The notes beneath the pieces are model-generated. The model was not told where the DNA came from, ran no database searches, and saw only the letters and a program-made list of their open reading frames with translations. From a virus, in the IMG/VR virus record IMGVR_UViG_3300033402_000312: a DNA stretch of 64,000 bases; one strand, written 5' to 3'. The stretch's first letter is position 1. Each line of letters opens with the position of its first letter. This document shows, piece by piece, positions 1,293 through 61,428 of the stretch. A program made the position numbers and the translations under genes.

Positions 1293-1298
1293 ACCGTC

Positions 1299-1853: not shown

Positions 1854-2759
1854 ATGCCATCCCTTCTTGAAAAGCTTTCCTATTTCGACCTTGAAACCGG
1901 GGGTACCTTCGTTATTGCCGGAGACAGTTTTCTCTGGAAAGAAGGCAAAAAGGTACCGGAAGATTCCAAAGCGACGAAGTTGGTGCAACGGTATGGTTGG
2001 ACGTTGAAATCGGGCGATGACCTGTGGTTGGTCTTCAGGCAAAAGGGCAACCGGGGCGAGCTTACTGTGATACGCGGAAGCAGGGGCTGGATTTATAGTC
2101 TGCCGGGCCGAGATATAGCCATGAAGGGCGAGGGGCTGGACAGCCTATACGACGCCCTTGAGAAAGGCATGCTCACCGAGGCTTTTGCCAAGGCAGCTTG
2201 CATCAAGGCGGAGTTTTGCCCGCAGTGCGGCTGGGACGCGGAGCGCTGCCGCTGCCCCAACAAAGCGGATTTGCTGGACGGAAAAACCCGCGCCGACCAC
2301 CTTGCCTCAAAGTTATTCCAGGCGCGGGAAGCCATGCACGACGACTCCGGCGCTCTGACGGGCCTGCGCCGCCGACCGGATTACGGCGAGTCCGACTCCT
2401 ATTCCGTCGAGATGAACGAGGCGAATTCCAAGGGGGCATGCCTGATCCTCGACGGGGGCGTCAAGACGGCATCCGGTGCTAAGAAAGCGGAACTGTACGT
2501 CACCTCGGTCGAGTACGAGCGCGGATGCGCCCTCAAGCTCGCCAGCTTCCGGTACAGCCCAAACCCGGTGCAAGCCAAGGTCTTCGGGCGTCGCATCGCA
2601 GAGAACCTTGCAAGGCAGGTTCGCGGCCTGTGCGGGGCGGTTGCCCACGTTATTGAAGCGTCTGACATCGTCTTTCGCGCCGCACAAGTGCGTCCAACAT
2701 CTTATCAAAGTCGGCGTCAGGTAACGCCCCCCGCGCTCGATTGTATACCCAGCAAGTGA
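1854..2759 (+). CDS. hypothetical protein
   Basis: 301-aa ORF; CPQCGWDAERCRCP zinc-ribbon-like segment. Confidence 0.45.
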   Translation: MPSLLEKLSYFDLETGGTFVIAGDSFLWKEGKKVPEDSKATKLVQRYGWTLKSGDDLWLVFRQKGNRGELTVIRGSRGWIYSLPGRDIAMKGEGLDSLYDALEKGMLTEAFAKAACIKAEFCPQCGWDAERCRCPNKADLLDGKTRADHLASKLFQAREAMHDDSGALTGLRRRPDYGESDSYSVEMNEANSKGACLILDGGVKTASGAKKAELYVTSVEYERGCALKLASFRYSPNPVQAKVFGRRIAENLARQVRGLCGAVAHVIEASDIVFRAAQVRPTSYQSRRQVTPPALDCIPSK

Positions 2760-2840
2760 CGCGGACGTTCTCGGGCTATAGGCCCCGATTGATCTCTACG
2801 GTCGAGAGGGTCCTTTGGTTAGCCAAATCCCCCATCGCGG

Positions 2841-2849
2841 CTGTATACT
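2841..2849 (+). promoter_or_regulatory. extended -10 element CTGTATACT upstream of ORF 2856 (no clear -35)
   Basis: same 9-mer as the four other copies. Confidence 0.3.
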
Positions 2850-2855
2850 TGGGGC

Positions 2856-3353
2856 ATGAGCGGGTTGACATTCGAGAAGTGGTGGGAAGAAAATTACTGG
2901 CGGTTTTGCGGCGAGGTCACGAGCCAGCATGTGAAGATCGCCTGGGATGCTGCGCTTGGCATGCTTCTGGTGGTGGAGGGCGACTACAACGACGCGGACT
3001 ACATTGTCAGCGTTGCGCCTGTCACCGAGGAAAAACTTGAGAAGTTCCTGCCGTTGATCGAAGCCATCAAAAATTTCAAACCCTACACGATAACCTCACG
3101 CGGGTATGCAGGCGAGGGCGAGAAGCCTTTGTCGTGGACTCACAAACACAACTGGCCCTGCGGCGAATACGGCTGCCGCCAAGACTTGGGGGAAAAGCCC
3201 ATCACGGAACTGTACCCCGAAATCGACGCGGGGATTGTCGAGGAGTTCGACCAAGAGTACGTGCCGCACAATGAGGACGGAAACGTCCATACAATCGAGA
3301 AGATTTTCACCGTGAGATTTGATAGACTCATATTTGAGCACGCAGGCAAATGA
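2856..3353 (+). CDS. hypothetical protein
   Basis: 165-aa ORF preceded by CTGTATACT extended -10 element. Confidence 0.5.
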   Translation: MSGLTFEKWWEENYWRFCGEVTSQHVKIAWDAALGMLLVVEGDYNDADYIVSVAPVTEEKLEKFLPLIEAIKNFKPYTITSRGYAGEGEKPLSWTHKHNWPCGEYGCRQDLGEKPITELYPEIDAGIVEEFDQEYVPHNEDGNVHTIEKIFTVRFDRLIFEHAGK

Positions 3354-4003
3354 GTCTCCTTGACCAAGCCATAGAGCTTGCCGTCACCGCCCATGCTGGG
3401 CAAACAGATGAAGATGGCATGCCGCGTGTCATCCACGCTTTGGAAGTGATGTTCGGGGCGAAAAAAGCTATCGAGACTAGCAGAACGTACGAAGGGCATT
3501 CCGCCCAAGAAACCCCGAATTATACCGGCACCGTGGAAGACCTGATGATCGCTGCTGTGCTCCACGATACCGTCGAGGACTCGTTCGTCACGCTACCTCT
3601 CATCGAAGTGCAATTCGGCAAGCATGTCCGCGACATGGTGGACGGTGTCACCCGGCGCGGCTTGGGCAAAGGCGAAACCAAGGAGTTTTACCGCGACTTC
3701 ATTTACCGGGCGAAAACAAACCCCGGCTCTCGCATCATCAAGATCGCTGACCTGATGCACAATTATGGGCGCTCCCATAAGATCAAAAAGGCAAGCTGGC
3801 GGAACAAGCTGATGTTCAAGTACAACGTCGCGCTGTCCGTCTTGAAAGATGCCGACCAGCCGACATGGGAGCAGGCTTCCTCTTCCGTGCAGCTTGACGG
3901 GTCGCATGCCCGCTATTTCATTGCCGACCCAGACGGCAAGAGGATCGAAGTCGCCGAAGAAGAATTCAGACGCTTATATGCAAAGCGGCCGAAGAACCCA
4001 TAG
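3350..4003 (+). CDS. HD-domain (p)ppGpp hydrolase-like protein (RelA/SpoT hydrolase-domain family)
   Basis: motifs HALEV, AAVLHDTVED, FG..V...VDGVTR typical of RelA/SpoT HD hydrolase domain; ATGA overlap with upstream gene. Confidence 0.7.
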   Translation: MSLLDQAIELAVTAHAGQTDEDGMPRVIHALEVMFGAKKAIETSRTYEGHSAQETPNYTGTVEDLMIAAVLHDTVEDSFVTLPLIEVQFGKHVRDMVDGVTRRGLGKGETKEFYRDFIYRAKTNPGSRIIKIADLMHNYGRSHKIKKASWRNKLMFKYNVALSVLKDADQPTWEQASSSVQLDGSHARYFIADPDGKRIEVAEEEFRRLYAKRPKNP

Positions 4004-9288: not shown

Positions 9289-10410
9289 ATGGCAACAAGC
9301 CCGACTCCGCTGAGTCTCAGCAACTTCTCGCCGAAATCCTTCTGGAAGAAACCGGAAGGCAAGCCCGGAATGATCTTGATGGCGGTCCTCGCGGCTGCCG
9401 GTGCATACGGGCTGTACCTGGCCCTCCCTTTCCTCATCACGCTGGTCGCGAACACGCTTTACCTTGCCCTCCTCGTTGGCGTGCTCGTCGGCATGGTTGC
9501 CCTCGTGATGAACGGCACTGTGCAAACGCTTGCGAAGAACATTTTCCAGTCGCTTTGCCGGGGCGTCGCCACGATATATACCACCATCGACCCTATCGGC
9601 ATCCTGAAGAATCAGCTTGACGACATGCGCAAGGCGAAGGCGGAGCTTGACGGAACCATCCAGCGCTTCGCCGGGTCGGACAACAACCTGAGAACCAACA
9701 TCGCCAAGAAAACCCAAGAGATCATGACGCTTAAGGCGGAAGCGGACGCTGCGCAGAACATGCTCCCCCGTAAGACCGACGATCTGGAAATCGAGCGTAT
9801 CAAGTTGCAGCAGGAGACCTACCTCCAGAAGGCGGGCCTGCTGATGCAGGCTGTCCAGCAGCTTCAGGCGCTCGAAGACCAGACCAAGGACATGCTCGTC
9901 AAGTTCCGCCACTGGTCGCAGGTCTCGGACGCCAAGATCGACCGCACTGCGATGAAGGTGGAAATCTTCGCCGAGCAGCGCAAGATGATCCTTGACGCGA
10001 AGGCAACCCTTGGCATAGGCATGCGCTTGCTGAGGGGCGATTCCGAGCAGCTAAAGCTCGTTGACGGCGCAATCGAGTTCTTGCAGGACGATGCCGCCCA
10101 GACCCTCGGCGAAATCCAAGAATTCAACCGCTTCTCCGACAAGATGCTCACCGACATCGACATTGAAAACAGCGCGAACGCCGAACTGGCCCGCAAGAGG
10201 TTCGCCGACATGGGCACGAAGCTCGAAGCCTCCGCCAACCGCCCAAGCGCCGTTGACCAGCTTCAGGCTGCCCTTGCCGGGGCGAACAGCAGCCCGATCA
10301 GCATCCCAACGACCCCGGTCGTGGGACACGGCGCGGCACGCGGCACTGCGGCTGGCATGAATCCCGGAAGCACGGGCACCAACGATTACAGCGATTTGTT
10401 CAAGGGCTAA
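9289..10410 (+). CDS. membrane-anchored coiled-coil protein
   Basis: two N-terminal TM helices then ~250 aa coiled coil; AAAGGAAAA RBS. Confidence 0.5.
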   Translation: MATSPTPLSLSNFSPKSFWKKPEGKPGMILMAVLAAAGAYGLYLALPFLITLVANTLYLALLVGVLVGMVALVMNGTVQTLAKNIFQSLCRGVATIYTTIDPIGILKNQLDDMRKAKAELDGTIQRFAGSDNNLRTNIAKKTQEIMTLKAEADAAQNMLPRKTDDLEIERIKLQQETYLQKAGLLMQAVQQLQALEDQTKDMLVKFRHWSQVSDAKIDRTAMKVEIFAEQRKMILDAKATLGIGMRLLRGDSEQLKLVDGAIEFLQDDAAQTLGEIQEFNRFSDKMLTDIDIENSANAELARKRFADMGTKLEASANRPSAVDQLQAALAGANSSPISIPTTPVVGHGAARGTAAGMNPGSTGTNDYSDLFKG

Positions 10411-10477
10411 GCTTTAACCGTCAGCCCGCAACCGGGCTGACGGAGCATCAAAAATATCAGGAGGAGAGAAAAAGAAC

Positions 10478-12298
10478 ATGGCACACATCAAACCCCAAGC
10501 CAAGATTGCATTGGTGGTGATCCTCGTGGTGGGCGTGGTCTTCGGACTCCGCATCGCTGGCGAGCACGGGTATATTCCAGTTCCCGGCTATCTGCATTCT
10601 CTGGTTCCTCAGAAAGCTAACATTCCCGACGTGCGCGACGCCGAAGTCTCCAACGTCACCCCGGTCGCGCTTCCGACCAGTTCGCCAGCTACTGTGCAAA
10701 GCACTTTGATTCGCGGCGAAATCTGGGAGTGGAACGCCCAGATGGGCTTGCTCTTTGCAAATGGCGGCCCAACCACAACCCAAGGCTCGCTGATGGCGAA
10801 GCGCAACGTCAACTTGATGCTTATCCGTCAGGACGACACCAACAAGATGCAGGAAGACCTGATCGCCTGCGCGAATGAACTCCATGGCGGCGCTACCCAG
10901 TGCTCAAACGGGGCGAACTTCGTTGTGATCATGGGCGACGGCTCGGGCCAGTTCGCGGCTGCGGTCAACCCCCAGCTTGCGAAGCTTGGACCGCAGTACC
11001 TCGTGAAGGTCATTGCCGCGACCGGCTATTCCCGTGGCGAGGACGCCTTCATGGCACCGCCAGAGGTCAAGAGGTCCGCTTCCAACGCCAAGGGCATCCT
11101 CGTGGAGGGCGTGCTCCGCGATGGCGACTGGAACATTGCCATGAAGTGGGCTGCCGACAACAACATCCCGAACAACCCCGACGAGCACACATACGACTCG
11201 GACGCCATCAACTGGGTCAACGCCCCCGACTACAACACTGCCGCATCCGACTACGTCGCTGGCAAGTGCGAAGACCGCAAGGTTGTCAAGGACGGACACC
11301 CAACCGGGGACACCAAGCACGTCTGCGTTAACGCGGTCGTGACGTGGACACCAGGCGACGTCACTGCCGTCACGCAAAAGGGCGGATTGGTGAAGGTCGT
11401 GTCATCCAAGCAGTATCGCTCGCAAATGCCAGCCGTCATCCTCGGCCCGGAGAAGTTTTTCGCCGACAACCGCGACGAGATCACCAACATGGTCGCAGCA
11501 ATGTTCGAAGGTGGCGATCAAGTGAAGGCGTTCGACCAGTCATTGCACGCTGCTGCGACCATCTCAACGAAGGTCTACAACGACGAGGGCGACAGTGTCA
11601 GCCACGGCGGGGAGTTCTGGTACAAATATTTCAAAGGCGTGGACTACCGCGACTCTGAGGGGAACACCGTACTTCTTGGCGGCTCGGCGGTCAACAACCT
11701 CGACGACAACTTGATCCTGTTCGGTCTCAAGCCGGGCACGAACGACAACTTCCGTTCGACCTACACTGTCTTCGCGAACATCGACGTGCAGCAGTATCCC
11801 ACGCTGTTCAAGGAGACCCCGATCCCGGACGTCAAGACAGTCGAAGACAAGTCGTACATCACCGGAGCGCAAGCTATACTCTCCGGCGAAGGCGACGTCG
11901 GCTCCGAGGCGCAGACTGTGGACTACACGTCGCAGGCTTCCGGCGAGACTGTCTCGAACCGTTCTTACAACATCCAGTTCCAAACCGGCAGCAGCGTCCT
12001 GACTCCCGCTGGCGAAGACCAACTCCGCCAGTTGAAGGATGGTTTGGCGATCACCGGGCTGTTCATCAGGGTGGACGGATATACCGACAACACCGGCTCC
12101 GACACGGTCAACATCCCGCTGTCGCAAGCCCGCGCCGAGTCGGTGAGGAACTTCCTCCAGCGCAACTATCCGGGAACGTTCCCGAACAGGCGCTTCCAGA
12201 CAGCGGGGCACGGCTCGCAGAACCCCATCGCCAGCAACGCGACGGCTGAAGGCAAAGCCCAGAACCGCAGGGTCGAGATAACCCTTGTGGGTCAGTGA
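10478..12298 (+). CDS. ABC transporter substrate-binding protein (NitT/TauT-like) fused to C-terminal OmpA-like peptidoglycan-binding domain
   Basis: N-term TM anchor; middle resembles SsuA/TauA-type substrate-binding protein; C-term OmpA motif GYTDNTGSDTVNIPLSQARAESV...NRRVEI; AGGAGGAGAGAAA RBS. Confidence 0.65.
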   Translation: MAHIKPQAKIALVVILVVGVVFGLRIAGEHGYIPVPGYLHSLVPQKANIPDVRDAEVSNVTPVALPTSSPATVQSTLIRGEIWEWNAQMGLLFANGGPTTTQGSLMAKRNVNLMLIRQDDTNKMQEDLIACANELHGGATQCSNGANFVVIMGDGSGQFAAAVNPQLAKLGPQYLVKVIAATGYSRGEDAFMAPPEVKRSASNAKGILVEGVLRDGDWNIAMKWAADNNIPNNPDEHTYDSDAINWVNAPDYNTAASDYVAGKCEDRKVVKDGHPTGDTKHVCVNAVVTWTPGDVTAVTQKGGLVKVVSSKQYRSQMPAVILGPEKFFADNRDEITNMVAAMFEGGDQVKAFDQSLHAAATISTKVYNDEGDSVSHGGEFWYKYFKGVDYRDSEGNTVLLGGSAVNNLDDNLILFGLKPGTNDNFRSTYTVFANIDVQQYPTLFKETPIPDVKTVEDKSYITGAQAILSGEGDVGSEAQTVDYTSQASGETVSNRSYNIQFQTGSSVLTPAGEDQLRQLKDGLAITGLFIRVDGYTDNTGSDTVNIPLSQARAESVRNFLQRNYPGTFPNRRFQTAGHGSQNPIASNATAEGKAQNRRVEITLVGQ

Positions 12299-20013: not shown

Positions 20014-20107
20014 GGAGAGATGCCAGAGAGGCTGATCGGGGCGGTTTGCTAAACCGTTGTGGGAGCTAAAACTTCCACCGGGGGTTCGAATCCCCCTCTC
20101 TCCGCCA
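20014..20107 (+). tRNA. tRNA-Ser(GCU), type II, CCA encoded
   Basis: acceptor ggagaga/tctctcc, T-arm ggggg-ttcgaat-ccccc, anticodon loop ttGCTaa, long variable arm. Confidence 0.75.
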
Positions 20108-20108
20108 C

Positions 20109-20200
20109 GGAAGGGTTGGTACATTGGCAGGTCCGGCTGTCTCGAAAACAGTTACGGGGCGCAAGCTCCGTTGCCCGTTCGACTCGGGTCCCTTCCTCCA
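20109..20200 (+). tRNA. tRNA-Ser(CGA), type II, CCA encoded
   Basis: acceptor ggaaggg/cccttcc, T-arm gcccg-ttcgact-cgggt, loop ctCGAaa. Confidence 0.65.
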
Positions 20201-20345
20201 AGTTTAGATCGCAGCGGTGTTGGATACAGTTACTTCGGATAAACACAACCGGCGCGAGCCGGGCGTGCAAGTCTGGGTTCGAATCCCAGCGACCGGGCGC
20301 AAGCCCGGTGTCAACTGTGCCGCTTGTTCCCTGCGATTCAGTTTT

Positions 20346-20435
20346 GGAGAGTTGGCCGAGTGGACGATGGCGCTCGCTTGGAAAGCGAGTATCCTCGAAA
20401 GGGGGTCGCGAGTTCGAATCCCGCACTCTCCGCCA
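20346..20435 (+). tRNA. tRNA-Ser(GGA), type II, CCA encoded
   Basis: acceptor ggagagt/actctcc, loop ttGGAaa, disc G. Confidence 0.7.
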
Positions 20436-20436
20436 G

Positions 20437-20528
20437 GGCGAGGTTGGTACATGGGCAGGTCCGGCGCTCCCGAAAAGCGTTACGGGGCTGACGCTCCGTT
20501 GCAGGTTCAACTCCTGTCCTCGCCGCCA
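20437..20528 (+). tRNA. type II tRNA, Ser(CGA)-like with C33
   Basis: acceptor ggcgagg/cctcgcc, T-arm gcagg-ttcaact-cctgt, loop ccCGAaa (C at position 33). Confidence 0.5.
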
Positions 20529-20533
20529 AATTT

Positions 20534-20619
20534 GGAAGGTACTGCCGAATGGTTGGCAACTAGCCTTGAAAGCTAGGGCGTCCGAAAGGACGGGCGTTCG
20601 ATTCGTCTATCTTCCGCCA
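20534..20619 (+). tRNA. tRNA-Ser(UGA), type II, CCA encoded
   Basis: acceptor ggaaggt/atcttcc, D-stem tgcc/ggca, anticodon stem ctagc/gctag loop ctTGAaa. Confidence 0.7.
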
Positions 20620-20646
20620 AATTTCAGGTATTAGCCGTAGTAATTC

Positions 20647-20735
20647 GCGGGAGCAGCCCGATTGGCCGGAGGCGGCGGACTTAAAATCCGTTGGGAGCAA
20701 TCCCTTTGTGAGTTCGACTCTCACCTCCCGCACCA
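20647..20735 (+). tRNA. tRNA-Leu(UAA), type II, CCA encoded
   Basis: acceptor gcgggag/ctcccgc, disc A, loop ctTAAaa, T-arm gtgag-ttcgact-ctcac. Confidence 0.7.
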
Positions 20736-20740
20736 AATTC

Positions 20741-20829
20741 GCTGGTGTCCGTTGGCACGGGGAACCGTTTTATAAACGGTTGCCCTAGATCGGGGCTTCC
20801 ATAGGGTTCGATTCCCTACACCAGCACCA
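20741..20829 (+). tRNA. type II tRNA with anticodon UAU (unusual; Ile(UAU)-like or noncanonical)
   Basis: acceptor gctggtg/caccagc, disc A, anticodon stem accgt/acggt loop ttTATaa, 21-nt variable region, T-arm taggg-ttcgatt-cccta. Confidence 0.5.
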
Positions 20830-39814: not shown

Positions 39815-39890
39815 AGGGGATTGGTCTAGCGGCTACGATGCGCGTCTCCAAAACGCTGCGACGGGGGTTCGAGTCCCTCATCCCCTGCCA
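39815..39890 (+). tRNA. tRNA-Trp(CCA), CCA encoded
   Basis: acceptor aggggat/atcccct, loop ctCCAaa, T-arm gggggttcgagtccctc. Confidence 0.7.
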
Positions 39891-39912
39891 AGTTTTTGAA
39901 GGGAAGGAAGTT

Positions 39913-40543
39913 ATGGAACTGAGGTCAGGGGCTTCTCAAGCGCGAGGTACCCGCATCCTGCGGGGGGAGACGGCTGCCCGGAGGCGTCTTCATCTCGTCT
40001 AGCCTTGCGCAGAGGGCGACGGAAGCCGGGTACGAGGAGTTCGTCCTTCCGTCGCTTGAGCTTGCCGCCATGTACGCGGAGAAGGCGGGGGATGAGGTTC
40101 TGGGGCAGATGTACACGTTCCCGGACAAGAAGGGCAGGCTGCTGTGCCTGCGACCGGAGGGGACGGCGACGTGCCAGGTGCTCGCCGACACGGCGCTGAA
40201 GTCGGAGCGGGACGTGAGGCTCTGGTACCTGGCGACCTGCTGGCGCTACGAGCGGCCGCAAGCCGGGCGCTACCGGGAGTTCTTGCAGTTCGGCGTGGAG
40301 GTCCTGAACCCGCGCCGGGGCGTGCGGGACGAGCTTGTGGCGCTGGCCGAAGGCATGGTCGGAATGTTCACCGACCGCTATGAGGTGAGCAGGGCTGTGA
40401 AGCGCGGGCTGGCGTACTACGTCGAGGACGGCTTCGAGATAAGCTGCCCGCAGCTTGGCGCTCAGAAGCAGGTCTGCGGCGGCGGGTCGTACAAGCAGGG
40501 ATGCGGCTTCGCGCTCGGCGTGGATCGGCTGATGCTGGTTTGA
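39913..40543 (+). pseudogene. hisS-like (histidyl-tRNA synthetase class II core) remnant, frameshifted and internally shortened
   Basis: N-term fragment MELRS..RGTRILRGETAA stops at 40002; second frame carries motif 1 LRPEGTA, motif 2 CWRYERPQAGRYREFLQFGVE, motif 3 CGGGSYKQGCGFALGVDRL; insertion and anticodon-binding domains absent. Confidence 0.45.
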
Positions 40544-40570
40544 GTTTCATGCCGTAGTGCATGACACTAC

Positions 40571-40644
40571 GGTGGGCGTAGTTCAGTTGGGAGAACGCCC
40601 GGCTGTGAACCGGGAGGTCGCGGGTTCGAACCCCGCCGCTCACC
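40571..40644 (+). tRNA. tRNA-His(GUG) with genomically encoded G-1, no encoded CCA
   Basis: G-1 pairs with discriminator C73; acceptor gtgggcg/cgctcac; loop ctGTGaa; T-arm gcggg-ttcgaac-cccgc. Confidence 0.75.
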
Positions 40645-40689
40645 CTTTCGTGACTTCCTGAGTATTAAGTAGAGTGCTCAGGAAGGTTC

Positions 40690-41517
40690 ATGATGCTTTA
40701 CACCGTGTACAAGACGGTGAATTTGACGAACGGCAAGTACTACTTCGGCGTCCATAAAACGGACGACCCGGATGACGACTACCTCGGTTCTGGGGTATAC
40801 ATCAAGCGAGCCGTTGCAAAGTACGGGGAACAGAACTTCCGCAAGGAAGTGTTGTTCATTTATCTTGATGCGGAGTCGGCGTTTAAGAAAGAAGACGAGT
40901 TAATCCAGTGTTATCGAGGCAGGGACCCGTTGTGCATGAATCTAAAGAATGGAGGGAGAGGTGGCTATGACTGGATCAATAAAAACGGGTTAAATGGTGC
41001 GAAAGTTGCGCATCTCCCAAATGTAGAGCAACAGCGGCGACGGACATTCGGTAAAAGACTTAAGACCGACGAAAATTTTCGACGTCAAGTTGCCGAACGA
41101 GCAAAGCACGCGGCGCAATTTGTAAAAAATGAGAGCCGCTTGGAATCATTAAAGCAGGCGACAATCGCAGCAGCGAACGCAAATACGGGCAGAAAACGCT
41201 CCTCGGAATTCAAGCATAAGATTTCTGCCGCGCAGCGAGGGGGTAGGTGGGTACACCAAGGAAGAAATAAACGTCGAGTTGTCCAAGAAGATTTGCCAAG
41301 ATTTTTGAAAGAGGGCTGGCTGTTTGGACAAAAAGACAAGCCGTCGCTTAAGACCCGAAAATTAAGTAAAGCTCAAACAGCTTTCGCGGGGACACGTTGG
41401 TGCTGGGGGCATAAAGATTTTTTACCTCTTAACGCTTTTGATGGCGCAAATCGGTTGTGTAGGCTTTGCAGGAAAAAGCGGCGAGTTTTACGCCGCCAAG
41501 AGTTGGGACATTGGTAA
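40690..41517 (+). CDS. GIY-YIG homing endonuclease
   Basis: N-term YTVYKTVNLTNGKYYFGVHKT...YLGSG GIY-YIG motif; lower GC than flanks; sits between tRNA genes. Confidence 0.7.
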   Translation: MMLYTVYKTVNLTNGKYYFGVHKTDDPDDDYLGSGVYIKRAVAKYGEQNFRKEVLFIYLDAESAFKKEDELIQCYRGRDPLCMNLKNGGRGGYDWINKNGLNGAKVAHLPNVEQQRRRTFGKRLKTDENFRRQVAERAKHAAQFVKNESRLESLKQATIAAANANTGRKRSSEFKHKISAAQRGGRWVHQGRNKRRVVQEDLPRFLKEGWLFGQKDKPSLKTRKLSKAQTAFAGTRWCWGHKDFLPLNAFDGANRLCRLCRKKRRVLRRQELGHW

Positions 41518-41527
41518 TTTGATATAG

Positions 41528-41604
41528 GCGCGTGTAGCTCAGTTGGACAGAGCGCTACTCTGCGAAGGTAGAGGTCGCTGGTTCGAATCCAGTCACGCGC
41601 ACCA
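41528..41604 (+). tRNA. tRNA-Arg(GCG), CCA encoded
   Basis: acceptor gcgcgtg/cacgcgc, D-arm gctcagttggacagagc, loop ctGCGaa. Confidence 0.65.
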
Positions 41605-41611
41605 AGAGATT

Positions 41612-41689
41612 GCGCCTGTAGCTCAGTTGGACTAGAGCGTTCGCCTCCGAAGCGAAAGGCCGCGAGTTCGAGTCTCGCCAGGCGCACCA
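41612..41689 (+). tRNA. tRNA-Arg(CCG), CCA encoded
   Basis: acceptor gcgcctg/caggcgc, anticodon stem ttcgc/gcgaa loop ctCCGaa. Confidence 0.7.
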
Positions 41690-41859
41690 AGTTCGAGAGC
41701 AGTCCCGGCGCTGGCCGTGCGCAGCACGGATCAACGCCGCCGATGATTGGGGTCTGGTGCCCGAACCATCTGTGATACTCAACCGGACTAGGCGCGTTGC
41801 CGCTGGCCCAAAGTGGACGTCCACGGAAGGAGTCACGTGAGAGAGGGCTGCCTGAGTTT

Positions 41860-41937
41860 GCCGGGTTAGCTATTGGACATGGCAGCACGTCTTCGAAACG
41901 TGCAATTTAGCGGGTCCGAATCCCGCACCCGGTTCCA
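41860..41937 (+). tRNA. tRNA-Arg(UCG), CCA encoded (6-bp anticodon stem)
   Basis: acceptor gccgggt/acccggt, anticodon stem gcacgt/acgtgc loop ctTCGaa, T-arm gcgggtccgaatcccgc. Confidence 0.55.
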
Positions 41938-41943
41938 AGATTT

Positions 41944-42020
41944 GCCCCCGTAGCTCAGCGGAACAGAGCGGCACGCTACGAACGTGAAGGTCGGCGGTTC
42001 AAATCCGTCCGGGGGCACCA
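41944..42020 (+). tRNA. tRNA-Arg(ACG), CCA encoded
   Basis: acceptor gcccccg/cgggggc, loop ctACGaa. Confidence 0.7.
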
Positions 42021-42179
42021 AGGTTAGTACGAACATCAAGCCTGATTAAAGACGGTTGCTTTGAACGAGTAAAAAAGGAAGTAGTAAAGTGTGATGTGCG
42101 ATGTGCTAACTGTCACAGACGCCGCACTGCAAAGCAACAAAAACATTTTTGGCTAGAATTTTTAGCAACGAAAGTTTGA

Positions 42180-42255
42180 TGGGGTGTGGTCCAATCGGTA
42201 GGACGCTCGGCTGTTAACCGAGACGGTGTGGGTTCGAATCCCACTGCCCCAGCCA
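42180..42255 (+). tRNA. tRNA-Asn(GUU), CCA encoded
   Basis: acceptor tggggtg/tgcccca (U1), D-stem gtcc/ggac, anticodon stem ctcgg/ccgag loop ctGTTaa. Confidence 0.65.
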
Positions 42256-42362
42256 GCTTATGAAGTGGATTGCCCAAGCCCTGCTGAAGCGGATCGGCGC
42301 GTATCTGAATAACAAGCGCGGATTGACTTGGGCCGAGGCGAAGAGGTGGTATATCGTCATCA

Positions 42363-42381
42363 CCCCCCTTGCGGGGGTTTT
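42363..42381 (+). terminator. putative intrinsic terminator
   Basis: cccccc-ttgc-ggggg followed by tttt. Confidence 0.45.
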
Positions 42382-42422
42382 GAGGAAGGGAGCAAAGGCG
42401 TAAATTTGCAGAAGAGTTCTGA

Positions 42423-42497
42423 TCCTCGGTAGCTCAATGGCGGAGCAGGCGGCTGTTAACCGCAAGGTTGCAGGTTCAAGTCCTGCCCGAGGAGCCA
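42423..42497 (+). tRNA. tRNA-Asn(GUU), CCA encoded
   Basis: acceptor tcctcgg/ccgagga (E. coli-like U1), loop ctGTTaa. Confidence 0.7.
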
Positions 42498-42502
42498 AGT
42501 TT

Positions 42503-42577
42503 GGGTCTGTAATTCAGCGGCTAGAAGCCCTCGCTCTTAACGAGGTAACGAGAGTTCGAGTCTCTCCAGACCCACCA
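42503..42577 (+). tRNA. tRNA-Lys(CUU), CCA encoded
   Basis: acceptor gggtctg/cagaccc, anticodon stem cctcg/cgagg loop ctCTTaa. Confidence 0.7.
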
Positions 42578-42594
42578 AGTTTTTGTGATACCAT

Positions 42595-42671
42595 GGGCCG
42601 CTAGCTCAATTGGTTAGAGCAACTGCCTCTTAAGCAGAAGGTTCCCGGTTCGAGTCCGGGGCGGCTCACCA
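42595..42671 (+). tRNA. tRNA-Lys(CUU), CCA encoded
   Basis: acceptor gggccgc/gcggctc, D-arm gctcaattggttagagc, loop ctCTTaa. Confidence 0.7.
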
Positions 42672-42686
42672 AGATCGGAGAGGAAG

Positions 42687-42857
42687 ATGCTGAAGCCCAA
42701 CGGTGATTTTGATTTAGACGGAAAGCCGGTCATGCCCGATGTGGTTGTCGCCGGACTCATCCCCAACGAGGAGGGGCAAAACGATGTCGAGGTCGAACCT
42801 GCCGGGGTCGAACCCGACGATGACGACCTCTTCGTGGACTACGGCGGCGAGGGATGA
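42687..42857 (+). CDS. hypothetical small acidic protein (56 aa)
   Basis: GGAGAGGAAG RBS then ATG 42687; not in ORF track (below 60 aa). Confidence 0.35.
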   Translation: MLKPNGDFDLDGKPVMPDVVVAGLIPNEEGQNDVEVEPAGVEPDDDDLFVDYGGEG

Positions 42858-42901
42858 CAAGTTTTTGGGTATTAGGATTCTTAGGATAGGAGGTCGAAGA
42901 C

Positions 42902-43447
42902 GTGCCTGACGTACTGATTCTCGACATGAACTACCGCCCTGTCGGTTTCGCATCGTGGCAGGACGCGGTCAAGAACATCTGGAAGGACCGGGCTGTCGTC
43001 ATCAAGGAAGACGAGGACGGCAAGATGCTCCATTCCCCGTCCTTCGAGATGGGCATGCCGAGGGTGATCCGCGTCCGCAACGCGTGGGTGAAGCGGCGCA
43101 AGACCTCCGTCCCGTTCTCGCGGCGCAACCTTTACGTCCGCGACAGCGGCGAGTGCCAGTACTGCGGCAGGCACCTCAAGCTGGACGAGTACACGCTCGA
43201 CCACGTGGTGCCGCGCTCGCAGGGCGGTATCTCGTCCTGGGCGAACATGGTCCTGTCCTGCATGCGCTGCAACAAGCGCAAGGCGGGTCAGACGCCGGAG
43301 CAGGCAGGGATGCCTCTCTTGCAGAGGCCAATCGTCCCGAAGGTGGACGATCCGAAATATAATTTCAAATTGCACATTCGGAAGCTCCGCCCCGAGTGGA
43401 AGGAATGGGAGAACTTCCTGTACTGGAACATCGAGTTGGATAAATAG
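42902..43447 (+). CDS. HNH endonuclease
   Basis: CQYCGRHL...LDHVVPRSQGG...SCMRCNKRK. Confidence 0.75.
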   Translation: MPDVLILDMNYRPVGFASWQDAVKNIWKDRAVVIKEDEDGKMLHSPSFEMGMPRVIRVRNAWVKRRKTSVPFSRRNLYVRDSGECQYCGRHLKLDEYTLDHVVPRSQGGISSWANMVLSCMRCNKRKAGQTPEQAGMPLLQRPIVPKVDDPKYNFKLHIRKLRPEWKEWENFLYWNIELDK

Positions 43448-43494
43448 GTAGACAAGCCTCGGGGAGGACGATAACCTCCCCGAGCAAAGATTGC

Positions 43495-43572
43495 GGCCCC
43501 GTAGCTCAGCGGAACAAGAGTAGCGGTTTCCTAAACCGAAGGTCGTGCGTTCGAATCGCACCGGGGCTACCA
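43495..43572 (+). tRNA. tRNA-Arg(CCU), CCA encoded
   Basis: acceptor ggccccg/cggggct, loop ttCCTaa, T-arm gtgcg-ttcgaat-cgcac. Confidence 0.65.
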
Positions 43573-43577
43573 AAATT

Positions 43578-43775
43578 ATGATGTCAGCCGACATTTTCGT
43601 CTGGAAGTGCATCGTCTGCGGGCATAGGGTCATGACGCAGATGGACCTCCATGTCAACGACCGGCCGATCTGCGTGGAGTGCAATGCGGAGATGGAGCCA
43701 GTGAGGAAAGACCCCGAACTCGGGGAGCGCATCATGAGGATATGGGAGCGGCTGGTTCCCGGCGCACAGATTTGA
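43578..43775 (+). CDS. hypothetical zinc-ribbon protein
   Basis: CIVCGH...CVECN. Confidence 0.35.
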   Translation: MMSADIFVWKCIVCGHRVMTQMDLHVNDRPICVECNAEMEPVRKDPELGERIMRIWERLVPGAQI

Positions 43776-43779
43776 CTTT

Positions 43780-43854
43780 TGGGAGATCGTACAATCGGTA
43801 GTACACAGGTCTCTGGAACCTGTTATGGCGGTCCGAGTCCACCTCTCCCAGCCA
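43780..43854 (+). tRNA. tRNA-Gln(CUG), CCA encoded
   Basis: acceptor tgggaga/tctccca (U1-A72, disc G as in E. coli Gln), anticodon stem caggt/acctg loop ctCTGga. Confidence 0.65.
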
Positions 43855-43899
43855 AGCTTTCGGAACAGCCATGTGACTCTGGTGTTGAGCGGCGACAGC

Positions 43900-44079
43900 A
43901 TGAGCGGGTGCAAGAAGCACGGTCCCGGCGTTTGGCGCAGCGACTGCGAAGAGTGCCGCACGGCCCCGGTGCCGCAGCACGAAACCGATGTGATCCTGAC
44001 ACCGTCCTACTGCAACGGCTGCAAGTATGGCAGCCATTGCTTGGGCGCTGACCCGGACTGCGCATGCGGCTGCGAATAA
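43900..44079 (+). CDS. hypothetical Cys-rich protein
   Basis: MSGCKKHGPG...CEEC...CNGCKYGSHC...CACGC; start approximate. Confidence 0.3.
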   Translation: MSGCKKHGPGVWRSDCEECRTAPVPQHETDVILTPSYCNGCKYGSHCLGADPDCACGCE

Positions 44080-44109
44080 AGCTAGACAACGCCACGAAGT
44101 TGCGGTAGA

Positions 44110-44292
44110 ATGGGAGAGATGAACTCTCCGCTGAAGACGATCCTGAAGGTCACGGCTGCGGCGCTTGTACCGGGCATAGCGATCTACTTGCTGGCGAGCA
44201 TGATCCTGAGGGAGAACGAGAAGAAGGAATTCAAGAGGTATATCTACAACACCTACGGAGAGGGCAGCAAGTATGTTGACACCTACTATTGA
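44110..44292 (+). CDS. hypothetical small membrane protein
   Basis: single TM helix. Confidence 0.35.
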   Translation: MGEMNSPLKTILKVTAAALVPGIAIYLLASMILRENEKKEFKRYIYNTYGEGSKYVDTYY

Positions 44293-44389
44293 TTACAGCG
44301 CTCTTGCGACGATGGCGCTCGGCGTCTGCGCCCTCTGCCTCTGCCTTGCCTACCCTGCGCCACGAAGAAAACGCTGACCACATCCCTGC

Positions 44390-44465
44390 GGGCCGTTACG
44401 TCAACGGCTAGACTACTCGCCTTTTAAGCGATGGAATCTCGGTCCAAATCCGAGGCGGCCCACCA
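44390..44465 (+). tRNA. tRNA-Lys(UUU), CCA encoded
   Basis: acceptor gggccgt/gcggccc, loop ctTTTaa, T-arm ctcgg-tccaaat-ccgag. Confidence 0.65.
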
Positions 44466-44470
44466 AATTT

Positions 44471-44547
44471 GCCCCCGTCGTCCAACGGAATAAGGACACT
44501 GGCCTTCTAAGCCATGGATGCGGGTTCGATTCCTGCCGGGGGTACCA
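44471..44547 (+). tRNA. tRNA-Arg(UCU), CCA encoded
   Basis: acceptor gcccccg/cgggggt, D-stem gtcc/ggac, loop ctTCTaa. Confidence 0.65.
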
Positions 44548-44553
44548 ATTTTT

Positions 44554-44629
44554 GGGAGGTTAACTCAATCGGTAGAGTGCCCGGCCTTTAACCGGAACGT
44601 TGTGGGTTCGACTCCCATGCCTCCCACCA
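44554..44629 (+). tRNA. tRNA-Lys(UUU)-like with C33
   Basis: acceptor gggaggt/gcctccc, D-arm actcaatcggtagagt, anticodon loop ccTTTaa (C33), T-arm gtgggttcgactcccat. Confidence 0.5.
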
Positions 44630-44681: not shown

Positions 44682-45293
44682 ATGATAAACAAAGAACAAT
44701 TAGAACAAGCGATTTCCGATGGCTTAAGTAGCTACGGCATCGCTCGAAAATTCAATGTTGGTCAAACTGCTGCTCGGTATTGGTTGAAGCGATGGTCTCT
44801 TAAGACCCAACACAAGGCTAAACGCACAGGAAAACCACGACAGTTTAATCCATGTGTTGTTTGTGGGACGCCCACAAAAAACAAGAGGGTATGTGGGTTG
44901 AAGTGCAATGGTATTTTGACAACCGCCACAACACAAAAAAGATGGCAGAAAAGAAATTGCCAAGAACTAGCTAGCTGGAAACAGGGAAAATTTCAGCCGT
45001 CTGAATTTCGTTGCAAAGCAATTTTAGTTTTTGAACGGGGCAAAAAGTGTGAGATTTGCGGCTGGGCGGAGGTAAATCCCTATACGGATCGAATCCCAAT
45101 CGAGCTTGAGCATAAGGATGGGGACTGCTACAACAACAAGTACGAAAACCTGTCGCTTTTATGCCCAAACCATCAAAGCCTGACCGCAACTTACCGGGGA
45201 GCAAATGCCCGTAGGGGACGAGGACGCAAGATGTACAAAGTTGTGAGCCAATGGGCAAAAGAAAAAGGCATCGGCATTACAACCGGGACCTAA
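44682..45293 (+). CDS. HNH homing endonuclease with N-terminal HTH
   Basis: low-GC gene; ELEHKDGDCYNNKYENLSLLCPNHQ HNH motif; CVVCG...CGLKC. Confidence 0.65.
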   Translation: MINKEQLEQAISDGLSSYGIARKFNVGQTAARYWLKRWSLKTQHKAKRTGKPRQFNPCVVCGTPTKNKRVCGLKCNGILTTATTQKRWQKRNCQELASWKQGKFQPSEFRCKAILVFERGKKCEICGWAEVNPYTDRIPIELEHKDGDCYNNKYENLSLLCPNHQSLTATYRGANARRGRGRKMYKVVSQWAKEKGIGITTGT

Positions 45294-45754: not shown

Positions 45755-46582
45755 TCAAGGTTTCTGCCGGTTCGCCTTGTCCATGTCCGACTTCGAAAGC
45801 TGGTTGAACCCGCTGACGGACGCCAGGTCGGCTTTCAGTTGGGCGATGTTGAAGCCCTTGGGCTGCCAGGCCGCGCCGAGCAGAGTGTGGGACTCGTCGG
45901 TGTACTTGTCCCAGAACGCCACGGTCATCTTCTGGAGCATGCCCCACGTGATGCAGGTGACGGTCGTCGCGCCGTTTGCCGTGGGGTCTTTGACGTGGTA
46001 CGCCGGGCAGTAAACCGCGTGCCCGCCCGCGATCCCGCCGTCGTCCGGCACCACGTCCCAAACCTGGCCGTTCTGGTTCTGGGTGAGCGCCGAGTTGGGA
46101 AGCTGGAGACCGATGTAGACGCCGCCGAACTCCGCGATGGACTGCATGACGTGCCCGAAGTTCTGGGGCTGCGGGCTGACGTAGGCTTCGAGCACGTGCC
46201 CGCCGAACGTCTGCTGGTACCAGTCCGTGAGGACGGTGGTCTCGATGCCGCCTTGGTCGGTGCTCTCGTCGCCGAGGACGTAGCCGCACCACTTCTCGTA
46301 CTTAGCGAGGATGAGGCTGTCGGGAGGGGTGGTCGCGTCCTTCGTCCAGACCTGCACGGCGTGCCCGCAGGCGGCGATGGTGCAGTCGCCGAGGCCCTCG
46401 GAAGGGACTCCGGCAGGGGCATCCGAGTCGGGGCCGTTCAGCATCATGCCCCAGTCCGTGACGCCGTACGTGTACTGGGCGTAGGGCGGCGGGGTGTAGC
46501 CTTCCAACACGTAGTCCTTCATGTGCGGCGTCTGGGGGCTGAACAGAGCCTGCTTCTTGCCTAGCCTGTACTTGAATTGCAT
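45755..46582 (-). CDS. hypothetical protein (only minus-strand gene; possible Cys/His peptidase-like)
   Basis: GGAGGTAA RBS on minus strand before MQFKY start; GDCTIAACGHAV and GGHAVY motifs. Confidence 0.5.
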   Translation of the reverse strand: MQFKYRLGKKQALFSPQTPHMKDYVLEGYTPPPYAQYTYGVTDWGMMLNGPDSDAPAGVPSEGLGDCTIAACGHAVQVWTKDATTPPDSLILAKYEKWCGYVLGDESTDQGGIETTVLTDWYQQTFGGHVLEAYVSPQPQNFGHVMQSIAEFGGVYIGLQLPNSALTQNQNGQVWDVVPDDGGIAGGHAVYCPAYHVKDPTANGATTVTCITWGMLQKMTVAFWDKYTDESHTLLGAAWQPKGFNIAQLKADLASVSGFNQLSKSDMDKANRQKP

Positions 46583-46868
46583 GCGGGTTACCTCCACATA
46601 AGGTTCGGGTAGCGGGAAACAGGGGCAACCCCTTGAAAATCCTTGATAAACTGCGTCAAATCATGGTATTTCATGGTGAAATGGTACGCCCGCGAACCAC
46701 AAGCTCCCATATTTTCCCCGGATAGTTCGCGCTGTGATGCAAGTTTTTACGCACCTTGACTTTATGGAAGGAGCGGCTTGATTCGCAATAGCAAAACGAT
46801 GGCGAGGCTGGTGATTTCGCGAAAGGCGACCTCTGGACTATTTATTTGTAATGAGTTACGATATAGCT

Positions 46869-60181: not shown

Positions 60182-60340
60182 ACGGAATAGGGGCACCTTC
60201 CCTTCTTCGCAGAGAGGAAATGCCCTTGTAGCCGGGAAGCTTGAGGCGGGCTGTTTCGGGAAGACCACATTCTCTAAATGCCTGACAAGGGTTTCCCGGC
60301 TTTGTTTCCTACAAGTCGTTGATTATTGGGCACATAAAAC

Positions 60341-60370
60341 TGGACATTTGGCGCATCCAATCTGTATACT
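60341..60370 (+). promoter_or_regulatory. conserved promoter motif TGGACA-N18-TATACT
   Basis: tggaca 60341-60346; tgTATACT ending 60370; upstream cacataaaa box shared with the 18237 copy. Confidence 0.55.
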
Positions 60371-60390
60371 ACGGATGGAGGAAAAGAGGC

Positions 60391-61428
60391 ATGGCAAAAG
60401 CAAAGAAAAGCACCCACACCAGCGGTATCCCGAAGGGCTTCGATTCGCACGGCTCCGGCTCCGTGGGCGAACCCGCGAAGCAGAATCCCACCGACGTCGC
60501 CGCGAAGCTGGCGGACATGCTGAAACAGTCGGCTGCGCAAGAACACGGCGACGTGAACGTTGACACCAATGTCCCGGTGAAGAAGATCGCTGGCGGCAAG
60601 GCGACGTGGGCAGGTGTCATGGAACTGCCAAACGGCAGCGGCGGCGTCCTCGCGAAGTTTGCGGTCAAGACCTGCAAAGCCGTTGACACCGAAAAGTTTG
60701 AGCGGCACATGTACCACAGCGCTGAATGCAAGCACCGCGCCGAGCGCGGCGACATGGTCTGCTCCGGCTGCGGAGCGAAGGGGCTAAACGAGTACAACGT
60801 CGTGAAGGGCGTCGAGTTGGACGGCGAAGTCATCCTGATCTCCGACGAAGAACTGGCTGCGCTCGTCCCGCAAAACGAAAAGACGATGCGCATCACCGAG
60901 TTTGTGGACGGCACCGAGATCGACCCGATCTACCTCGAAGAAACCGAATTCCTGTACCCCCAAGAAGAGAAGAAGAGCAAGGCTGCGCAGTTGACGTTCG
61001 CCGTCCTCGGCGACACGCTCCGTGGCACCGGGAAAGTCGCGAAGGGCGTGCGCGTGAAGCGCGGCAAAGAGCAATACTTCGTCGTCCGCCCCTACGGGGC
61101 GAACGGTCTGACCATCAACATGCTTCACGCCGAGTACGAAGTACGCGACGCTTCCAGCCTGTGGCTCGCGGTTGAAGCTCCGCGCGAAATGGTCGAAATG
61201 ATGATGGCTCTCATCGAGACGCCGGAACTGACCAAGCCGTTCACCCCGGCGAAGCGCGACCAGTACCTAGCGAACGCGAACAAGCTGGTCGCCGACAAGC
61301 GGGCCGGCATCAAGACCGAGTGCCCGACCCCCGAGCCGGAGCAGAAGGGCACGGACAATTTGCTGGAGAAGCTCATGGCGGCGGTTGCGACAAACGCAGC
61401 GGCGAAAGCTGCCAAGGCTGGCAAGTAA
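60391..61428 (+). CDS. ku: Ku-like DNA end-binding protein
   Basis: KATWAGVMELPNGSGGVLAKFAVKT and ISDEELAALVPQNEKTMRITEFVDGTEIDPIYLEETEFLYP resemble bacterial Ku core. Confidence 0.55.
   Translation: MAKAKKSTHTSGIPKGFDSHGSGSVGEPAKQNPTDVAAKLADMLKQSAAQEHGDVNVDTNVPVKKIAGGKATWAGVMELPNGSGGVLAKFAVKTCKAVDTEKFERHMYHSAECKHRAERGDMVCSGCGAKGLNEYNVVKGVELDGEVILISDEELAALVPQNEKTMRITEFVDGTEIDPIYLEETEFLYPQEEKKSKAAQLTFAVLGDTLRGTGKVAKGVRVKRGKEQYFVVRPYGANGLTINMLHAEYEVRDASSLWLAVEAPREMVEMMMALIETPELTKPFTPAKRDQYLANANKLVADKRAGIKTECPTPEPEQKGTDNLLEKLMAAVATNAAAKAAKAGK

Follow-up and report, generated by a model that had tools for sequence, protein, structure and literature searches.

The 64,000-nucleotide (nt) viral sequence IMGVR_UViG_3300033402_000312, called the window throughout and meaning this whole stretch at its full length, carries at positions 39815 to 44629 an array of 15 tRNA genes interspersed with nuclease genes and, between tRNA-Trp and tRNA-His, a gene of 209 amino acids (aa) that resembles histidyl-tRNA synthetase (HisRS). 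An earlier note on this DNA had described the tRNAs and endonucleases; the HisRS-like gene was not part of it. We consider the array to be, probably, an inherited translation module, whose 15 functional tRNAs would allow late phage translation to run without reliance on the host tRNA pool and which includes a frameshifted HisRS paralog. The host pool could be inadequate through codon mismatch, decay of host tRNAs or tRNA-cleaving defences, and the paralog would be made only by a +1 frameshift at GGAGG-CGU-CUU-CAU-C.

An ordered tRNA array in very large soil phages

Several features mark the window as phage DNA: genes for rIIA, rIIB and an ATP-dependent DNA ligase (PHROG matches), relatives in IMG/VR, and related contigs of 448-465 kb with phage-type genes, on which no bacterial flanks were seen. 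Its G+C content is ~58%, and nearly all genes lie on the + strand. Comparisons with phage records yielded no close cultured phage for the window. A megablast search of the array against 50,697 phage records gave no match, and sensitive blastn against phage records returned tRNA-sized matches and one HisRS match, nothing else. Several metagenome assemblies hold the same phage with 100% identity over the array, leaving no polymorphism to analyse. Over 13-20 kb the sole mismatch to two other assemblies of this phage is a one-base length difference in an A run at position 52826.

All 22 tRNA genes that ARAGORN calls in the window lie on the + strand, seven at 20014-20829 and 15 in the array (Table 1). 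The latter run in the order Trp CCA, His GUG, Arg GCG/CCG/UCG/ACG, Asn GUU twice, Lys CUU twice, Arg CCU, Gln CUG, Lys UUU, Arg UCU and Lys UUU. As tandem cloverleaf genes on one strand of a phage genome, they constitute a phage tRNA gene cluster. The Rfam tRNA model, with a gathering score of 29 bits, backs 14 of the 15 at 46-72 bits (E 1e-7 to 1e-14); the remaining gene, Arg(UCG), matches the tRNA-Sec model alone, at 29 bits. The ARAGORN calls agree with the anticodons listed in the earlier note, namely all six for arginine, two Asn(GUU), two Lys(CUU), Gln(CUG), Trp(CCA) and His(GUG); its "one or two" Lys(UUU) genes are exactly two, and its remark that most genes encode CCA applies to 14 of the 15. 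The exception is tRNA-His, whose 3' end reads CACCC followed by TTT.

The same note saw an order by amino acid. This is borne out when the 22 tRNAs of the window are taken together (9 same-amino-acid adjacencies vs 2.9 expected, P=2e-4), but grouping inside the 15-gene array alone is not significant (5 vs 2.9, P=0.12). Recent tandem duplication with anticodon switching was rejected as the origin of the order, given that window paralogs are at most 77% identical and closer orthologs exist elsewhere. The direct repeats found are tRNA-to-tRNA similarity and nothing else. The spacers of 145-207 nt between tRNA groups share no mutual homology and contain no extra Rfam tRNA matches, and promoter-like and terminator-like sites are no commoner than in shuffled sequence. 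The amino acids served are exactly the six with side-chain nitrogen (Trp, His, Arg, Asn, Lys, Gln), and the 12 anticodons form one network of single-base steps, as 3.7% of random sets do; this pattern, noticed post hoc, may be coincidence.

The search for relatives began with the 181-aa HNH protein of the array. It first brought up an IMG/VR contig of 455,708 bp whose array is syntenic, and then about 20 more arrays from metagenomes, with protein identities of 58-86%. Contigs of 447,784 and 465,019 bp, as well as three that are shorter, came in through homologs of the HisRS-like gene, and a contig of 463,041 bp also belongs to the related contigs with the array. The order common to the relatives is Trp, the HisRS-like gene in some, His, the four CGN-reading Arg tRNAs, Asn, in some cases Gln, Asn, two Lys(CUU), HNH, Arg(CCU), Gln(CUG) and two Lys(UUU). 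Eleven distinct arrays combine the anticodons GCG, UCG, ACG and CCG (window, L041, L042, L046, L051/52, L056, L060, L121, L122, L124, L126; L numbers designate the compared loci). Arg(UCU) was found at the array position of the window in L051/52 only, besides the window itself, so that a complete set of six arginine tRNAs in one array is so far specific to the window phage. Arg(CCG) occupies three different positions among close relatives. IMG/VR relatives of the two genes that flank the array are not syntenic and mostly occur without tRNAs. Judged by these comparisons, the array is best described as a module that is old, ordered and vertically inherited within a clade of soil phages with very large genomes.

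Conservation of the tRNAs

For every tRNA of the array, the best match is a tRNA with the same anticodon in a relative (identity 0.75-1.00), and paralogs within the window have lower values (0.63-0.77), which places the duplications before the origin of the clade. Double compensatory changes in the stems of the arginine tRNAs (Table 1), together with the same-anticodon orthologs, argue that the tRNAs are kept by selection. This extends to Arg(UCG), whose poor Rfam score is attributable to G1.U72, U73 and an unusual D arm: orthologs in seven relatives keep its cloverleaf, and the covariation supports its assignment as a conserved, atypical tRNA. All six arginine tRNAs have the D-loop sequence GGA at 18-20 (A20), C35 and a 7-nt anticodon loop C/U-U-NCN-A-A, A20 and C35 being identity elements for arginyl-tRNA synthetase. 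The same-anticodon twins, i.e. Asn, Lys(CUU) and Lys(UUU), have bodies of only 64-67% identity, and each body type has its own orthologs; the twins thus appear to be maintained by selection and not to be recent duplicates. We infer from these features that the array tRNAs are expressed and charged.

Tryptophan, glutamine, arginine, asparagine and lysine tRNAs normally have a short variable arm. In several relatives (L040 at 7501, 8297 and 8595, L051, L056, L057, L059, L060, L064), the variable region of tRNAs of 85-91 nt for Trp, Gln, Asn, Lys, Arg(ACG) and Arg(CCU) forms an additional hairpin, in many cases with a GAAA cap; the array of the window has none of these.

A HisRS-like gene encoded in two frames

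The HisRS-like gene extends from 39913 to 40543 over two frames. Frame A starts with an ATG preceded by a Shine-Dalgarno (SD) sequence; its product begins MELRSGASQARGTRILRGETAARRRL..., and after 26 sense codons to CTT it continues with CAT CTC GTC and stops with TAG at 40002. The product of frame B, which lies in +1, starts ISSSLAQRATEAGYEEFVLP... and contains the class II motifs 1, 2 and 3. No start codon is present in frame B before 40070 in the window, and a start there would delete motif 1. Joining the two parts at CTT-C-ATC gives 209 aa with a spacing exactly as in unsplit homologs and a predicted junction peptide ...AARRRL-ISSSLAQR... (...AARRRLISSSLAQR in the window phage and ...LRGCLIEADYEEVILPSIWEQQTFIDK in the Sinorhizobium phage Phosso). 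The joined product aligns to E. coli HisRS in the PDB (5e-25) over residues 14-136, gapless across the junction, and over residues 250-289, while residues 137-249 (the insertion domain) and all residues after ~330 (the anticodon-binding domain) have no counterpart. It measures 209 aa vs ~420 for HisRS, and the match to HisZ (3e-6) is weaker than that to HisRS. Because the insertion and anticodon-binding domains are absent, the protein would be a catalytic-core HisRS-like paralog and not a canonical HisRS. Unsplit homologs are found in other huge phages, including uncultured records of 635-642 kb, and on chromosomes of Hahella, Massilia and Burkholderiaceae; in Hahella, the surroundings of the homolog were uninformative.

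The split is kept in all eight clade genomes with the gene (window, L121, L124, L125, L126, L060, L056, L122). In pairwise comparisons of the 57 nt before the site, codon differences in frame A are 37 synonymous and 21 non-synonymous, vs 6/55 and 0/61 in the other frames, and downstream of the site the +1 frame has 133 synonymous and 119 non-synonymous differences, vs 24/228 and 34/209. Coding apparently continues in the +1 frame, with purifying selection switching frame at CTT-CAT. The heptamer CTTCATC is invariant in the eight genomes (consensus C CGG AGR CGN CTT CAT), an SD-like element always lies 3 nt upstream of CTT (GGAGG-CGN-CTT, with GGAGA in L124), and the 0-frame stop invariably follows four codons after CTT. 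Phosso, a cultured phage of 469 kb, has a tRNA-His followed by the same split gene (L208, 4044-4686), and its site CGAGGT-TGT-CTT-CAT-C places the same heptamer nine codons further along the protein. That one heptamer recurs at two codon positions, one in the soil clade and the other in the homologous gene of Phosso, speaks for selection acting on the signal as such. All nine genomes have CAU (His) as the A-site codon, with the stop three codons on.

Expression of the mini HisRS-like gene through +1 ribosomal frameshifting is quite likely on these grounds. The putative cassette resembles the site in prfB, the gene for RF2, in which an SD-like element and a 3-nt spacer precede CUU UGA C (PMC13245932). 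Shared are the SD-like element (here CGG AGG), the 3-nt spacer codon, a slippery P-site CUU able to re-pair on UUC, the following C, a short 0-frame product that ends soon after, and a gene product acting on the substrate that decodes the A-site codon. In contrast to prfB, the A site holds the sense codon CAU, and the in-frame A-site stop of the prfB type (CUU UGA) is not present in any of the nine HisRS-like genes; the gene is a phage aminoacyl-tRNA synthetase-like gene with a putative shift site. In yeast Ty1, the shift site is CUU-AGG-C. Slowly decoded ('hungry') A-site codons raise +1 shifting, and Ty1 likewise depends on a hungry sense codon (PMC2377451, which cites the Ty1 work); the +1 codon AUC at the window site accounts for 75% of the Ile codons in window genes. 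Unlike Ty1, the window site belongs to a bacterial and phage setting with an SD-like stimulator, and what its hungry codon would register is the charging state of a single tRNA species. Since the A-site codon is a histidine codon, shifting and enzyme output should rise when charged tRNA-His is scarce. We therefore propose tentatively, by analogy, that the frameshift might sense histidine: with little charged tRNA-His the ribosome would pause at CUU-CAU-C and slip to UUC-AUC, and the enzyme would be made.

Two points weigh against expression by frameshifting. A sense codon in the A site usually gives far lower +1 shifting than a stop codon, and some genomes including Phosso have a +1-frame start of their own (ATG, GTG or TTG) upstream of the site, from which a truncated protein could be made without a frameshift. 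Gene callers, moreover, annotate the +1-frame part only. Nevertheless, we rate it as quite unlikely that the gene is a pseudogene, or that it encodes an N-terminally truncated protein from an internal start with the upstream frame as a relic or leader peptide. The upstream frame retains its ATG and SD sequence and encodes a peptide homologous to the N-terminus of unsplit homologs, with mainly synonymous change, and in the window the first +1-frame start would cost motif 1. Neither a decaying gene nor an internal start sits well with selection in two frames, an invariant CTTCATC at every split, the recurrence at another codon position in Phosso and a joined product that aligns to HisRS gapless at the junction.

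Resident and mobile nuclease genes

The three nuclease genes described by the earlier note as homing endonucleases interleaved with the tRNAs differ in their history. The 181-aa HNH gene at 42902-43447, confirmed by Pfam PF01844, has a native composition, with a G+C content at third codon positions (GC3) of 0.87, and lies between Lys(CUU) and Arg(CCU) in 15 of 15 full arrays, two of which (L121, L122) were retrieved without HNH. The sporadic distribution expected of a mobile endonuclease was not seen across these 15 arrays, at 58-86% identity and with most of them retrieved with the HNH protein. By its distribution and composition the gene appears to be a fixed resident of the array and not a mobile invader. 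A relative of 39% identity fills the sole large gap of an unrelated 3.4-kb contig with 28 tRNA genes (L067, Ga0247666_1003819, 1-3389).

The interleaving by mobile genes holds for the other two. The putative Seg-like GIY-YIG gene (40690-41517) matches the 'homing endonuclease' PHROG 314, with weak Pfam matches (SegE_GIY-YIG E=0.1, NUMOD3 0.67) and VYK...YFG...YLGSG motifs discernible by eye. A PDB sequence search with the protein gave no GIY-YIG structure, the only matches being spurious ones to protein A, and an IMG/VR search gave no match. With a GC3 of 0.51 vs ~0.75 for phage genes it is compositionally foreign. It was not found in most arrays compared, and its position varies: the N-terminal domain is 65% identical to L040 10489-11148, and the relatives in L040, L055 and L059 sit directly after the HNH gene, vs the His/Arg junction in the window. 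L046 has an unrelated HNH gene at this junction. The window copy stands where L040, L059, L060 and L122 have a second tRNA-His and other relatives have nothing, which suggests that the insertion replaced this tRNA. The HNH-like gene at 44682-45293 matches HNH families of PHROG, with Pfam HNH_3 under the cut-off (E=0.052) and a motif C-x2-C...ELEHKDGD...N...LLCPNH seen by eye; it is compositionally foreign (GC3 0.45) and has no homolog in the related arrays compared. Both genes are best explained as recent mobile invaders that would reshuffle the array.

In phage T4, the GIY-YIG enzyme SegB resides inside the tRNA cluster, recognises a T-loop motif, drives the region's inheritance and is able to amplify segments with tRNA genes (PMC2330249; PMC13096335). 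The nuclease pattern of the window matches this precedent. Tandem one-strand tRNAs in an rIIA/rIIB phage, a free-standing seg-like GIY-YIG gene (putative in the window) among them and a sporadic occurrence of nuclease genes among relatives are common to both; an association of segB with tRNA genes in general is documented (PMC2330249; PMC13096335). Different from T4, the order in the window is conserved over a deep clade of roughly 450-kb genomes, and the array has an HNH gene fixed in one slot and an embedded aminoacyl-tRNA synthetase-like gene; the GIY-YIG gene itself is a sequence-based assignment with a Pfam match below threshold. The T4 cluster has 8 tRNAs, the window array 15 for only six amino acids. 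Like SegB in T4, the resident HNH gene may promote the array's inheritance.

Decoding capacity and the reason for keeping the tRNAs

The array is predicted to decode all codons of Arg, Lys, Asn, His and Trp, and CAG of Gln. Typical bacteria read the CGN codons with ACG (as ICG) and CCG only, and the pair GCG and UCG is found in Mollicutes without TadA (PMC3711424). Both strategies are present in one array, the first one (ACG, converted to ICG via host TadA, plus CCG) and the inosine-independent GCG plus UCG. As in the Mollicutes, the GCG and UCG pair reads the four CGN codons without inosine; there, however, it replaces ACG, whereas the window array keeps ACG and CCG too (PMC3711424). This redundancy is hard to square with codon compensation and points to independence from host tRNA editing or integrity. 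Codon mismatch, loss of host tRNAs and tRNA-targeting defence may each be the selective driver.

It is somewhat unlikely that the phage tRNAs replace host tRNAs cut or depleted by anticodon nucleases or by other immune systems that target tRNAs, their divergent bodies and loops being poor substrates. Such a counter-defence role has been proposed or shown for phage tRNAs (PMC10264068; also PMC11464382, PMC11555353 and PMC13096335), and Lys and Arg tRNAs are named targets of PrrC and colicin D (PMC10264068). The conserved same-anticodon twins with very different bodies would fit this role, as would the C33 variants of Lys(UUU) and, among relatives, of Lys(CUU) and Arg(CCG), in which the change lies beside the wobble base; GCG removes the need for host TadA. 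Asn and His tRNAs are targeted by colicin E5. However, the list of targeted amino acids was matched post hoc, most anticodon loops are canonical (CU-NNN-AA), and C33 and C55 could be tolerated drift.

The earlier note took the array for codon-usage compensation, i.e. tRNAs for codons that the phage uses more than its host, and held the served codons to be abundant. We regard this explanation as unlikely. In 62 likely window genes, the Arg codons are CGC (45%), CGG (19%), AGG (14%), CGT (9%), AGA (7%) and CGA (5%), AAA makes up 27% of Lys, TTA 2% of Leu and ATA 9% of Ile codons. Abundance is thus true of CGC, CGG, AAG, AAC and CAG, but CGA, AGA, CGT, AAA, TTA and ATA are rare and are served too. 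The best bacterial matches of the phage methionine-aminopeptidase gene are in Binataceae and Acidiferrales metagenome-assembled genomes (MAGs) from soil. AGA and AGG together account for 21% of the phage Arg codons vs 5-6% in these MAG loci, and CTT and ATA are also higher in the phage, an illustrative comparison with loosely related MAGs (42-44% identity on one gene). Although tRNAs for AGR, AUA and UUA are present, CGN usage is alike in phage and MAG loci, and four CGN tRNAs are kept all the same. Compensation also leaves unexplained why ACG and GCG read the same codons and why, throughout the clade, twins with the same anticodon have retained separate bodies.

A view of the array as mainly cargo or debris left by homing endonucleases, its tRNAs duplicated and dragged along with little function, is highly improbable and largely refuted by covariation: SegB does spread and amplify tRNA segments (PMC2330249; PMC13096335), endonuclease genes vary at the His/Arg junction and Arg(CCG) has moved between its three positions, but 15 of 15 tRNAs have orthologs over a deep divergence with compensatory stem changes, the closest paralogs in the window are 77% identical, so that recent duplicates are not present, and tRNA identity elements are intact.

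We return to the array as a translation module, against which several points have to be set. Gln CAA is not covered. Most related arrays were retrieved via the HNH gene, two (L121, L122) independently of it, so that the presence of this gene in every array is in part an effect of how the arrays were selected. The window represents 64 kb of a genome of probably >400 kb, and the tRNA set given here is that of the window. Some tRNAs have unusual features that could impair function. C55 replaces U55 in three of them, Arg(UCG), Gln(CUG) and the Lys(UUU) at 44390-44465 (T loops UCCGA/UCCAA), C33 replaces the near-universal U33 in the Lys(UUU) at 44554-44629, and the CCA that is encoded on the tRNA-His of all relatives is not encoded on that of the window. 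C33 is also found in one Ser(CGA) outside the array (20437-20528), and both C33 tRNAs have a U33 twin.

Orthologs of the C55 tRNAs mostly have U55, and L041 has C55 in three other tRNAs. C33 occurs also in Lys(UUU), Lys(CUU) and Arg(CCG) of the relatives L054, L057 and L059, with the same Lys(UUU) loop in L057 and L059.

Other features of the window and its relatives

The second tRNA block of the window, at 20 kb, contains the Leu tRNA and the Ser GCU, CGA, GGA and UGA tRNAs of the earlier note and, in addition, a second Ser CGA and a 'UAU' tRNA-like gene. The latter (20741-20829) follows Leu(UAA) and has 89 nt, a long variable arm, A73 and the loop UUUAUAA, which reads AUA; it has no Rfam tRNA match. 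L057 keeps its loop and variable-arm sequence at the equivalent place (1473-1568).

Table 1 Features of the tRNA array and of other loci in the window. The last column gives stem pairs with double compensatory changes, cells paired, and the sequences compared
Feature	Position	Strand	Support	Covariation
tRNA-Trp(CCA), CCA encoded	39815..39890	+	ARAGORN; Rfam 46.4 bits; L059 ortholog 84% identical	
Mini HisRS-like gene, frame A	39913..40002	+		
Putative +1 frameshift cassette GGAGG-CGT-CTT-CAT-C(ATC)	39980..39994	+		
Mini HisRS-like gene, frame B (+1)	39992..40543	+	Pfam PF13393 7.7e-16, PF00587 2.1e-9	
tRNA-His(GUG), G-1 encoded at 40571, CCA not encoded	40572..40645	+	ARAGORN; Rfam 68.2 bits	
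Putative Seg-like GIY-YIG homing endonuclease gene	40690..41517	+	PHROG 314 2e-40	
tRNA-Arg(GCG)	41528..41604	+	ARAGORN; Rfam 71.3 bits	10/21; 98.6%; 7 orthologs
tRNA-Arg(CCG)	41612..41689	+	ARAGORN; Rfam 71.7 bits	18/21; 98.4%; 12 sequences
tRNA-Arg(UCG), atypical: G1.U72, U73, unusual D arm, C55	41860..41937	+	ARAGORN; weak in Rfam	17/23; 95.0%; 8 sequences (window and 7 relatives)
tRNA-Arg(ACG), anticodon loop CUACGAA	41944..42020	+	ARAGORN; Rfam 61.9 bits	14/21; 98.1%
tRNA-Asn(GUU), body type 1 (UGGGG...)	42180..42255	+	ARAGORN; Rfam 66.2 bits; L059 ortholog 87%	
tRNA-Asn(GUU), body type 2 (UCCUCGG...)	42423..42497	+	ARAGORN; Rfam 63.1 bits; L041 ortholog 87%	
tRNA-Lys(CUU), body type 1	42503..42577	+	ARAGORN; Rfam 61.3 bits; identical to L041 copy	
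tRNA-Lys(CUU), body type 2	42595..42671	+	ARAGORN; Rfam 66.2 bits; L044 ortholog 87%	
181-aa HNH endonuclease gene	42902..43447	+	Pfam PF01844 1.9e-14, 53.9 bits vs cut-off 21.4; also HNH_5, HNH_4	
tRNA-Arg(CCU)	43495..43572	+	ARAGORN; Rfam 58 bits	16/21; 97.1%; 13 sequences
tRNA-Gln(CUG), C55	43780..43854	+	ARAGORN; Rfam 51 bits; L044 ortholog 81%	
tRNA-Lys(UUU), body type 1, C55	44390..44465	+	ARAGORN; Rfam 47.1 bits; L046 ortholog 92%	
tRNA-Arg(UCU)	44471..44547	+	ARAGORN; Rfam 56.4 bits	
tRNA-Lys(UUU), body type 2, anticodon loop CCUUUAA (C33)	44554..44629	+	ARAGORN; Rfam 55.4 bits	
HNH-like endonuclease gene	44682..45293	+	PHROG HNH families 1.4e-13, 5.9e-12	
Long-variable-arm tRNA block: Ser GCU, CGA, GGA, CGA, UGA, Leu UAA, 'UAU' tRNA-like gene	20014..20829	+	ARAGORN	

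Downstream of the array, the window has the gene at 45755-46597 (PHROG 19005) on the - strand, and L046 and L121 have it on the + strand directly after the Lys(UUU) pair; this switch of strand indicates a local inversion next to the HNH-like gene unique to the window. Its closest IMG/VR homolog (L024, 10001-11899) is interrupted by ~1.1 kb (matches at 10001-10579 and 11678-11899), which may be an intron or an inserted element. In relatives, the array contains an open reading frame with the C-terminal domain of IF3 (L122, 11783-11974), and an amino-acid permease gene and a gene for a 249-aa class I (Trp/Tyr-type) synthetase-like protein follow just downstream of it (L122, 17763-19076 and 19474-20223; L121, 15876-17165). 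By its predicted gene content, the neighbourhood of the array in these relatives appears as a translation island.

Elsewhere in the window, 30843-33275 encodes an 810-aa protein with precomputed Pfam matches to Vault_3 and MVP_shoulder, domains of the major vault protein; it is conserved in L121 and L122, beside an RlaP-like gene. A Ku-like gene (Pfam Ku, 60319-61428) directly follows rIIB.

Implications

Phage tRNA clusters with homing endonucleases are an already known kind of locus. It is foremost the putatively frameshifted HisRS-like gene that takes the array of the window beyond this kind, together with its conserved order, the double CGN set and an HNH gene that stays in one slot. Very large phages from environmental metagenomes with tens of tRNAs and synthetases of their own have been reported (Al-Shayeb et al. 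2020, PMC7162821), and an ordered array of this type, a double CGN set and a frameshifted HisRS-like gene are not described in the accessible part of that report. With the array conserved in soil phages of ~450 kb, about 20 natural replicates are at hand for the question of why phages retain tRNAs. If our reading of the HisRS-like gene is true, it would represent a recoding switch of a new type, responsive to how far one tRNA is charged, with a sense-codon, amino-acid-specific autoregulatory frameshift operating in a phage translation module. This is directly testable, since the cultured Sinorhizobium phage Phosso carries the same signal.

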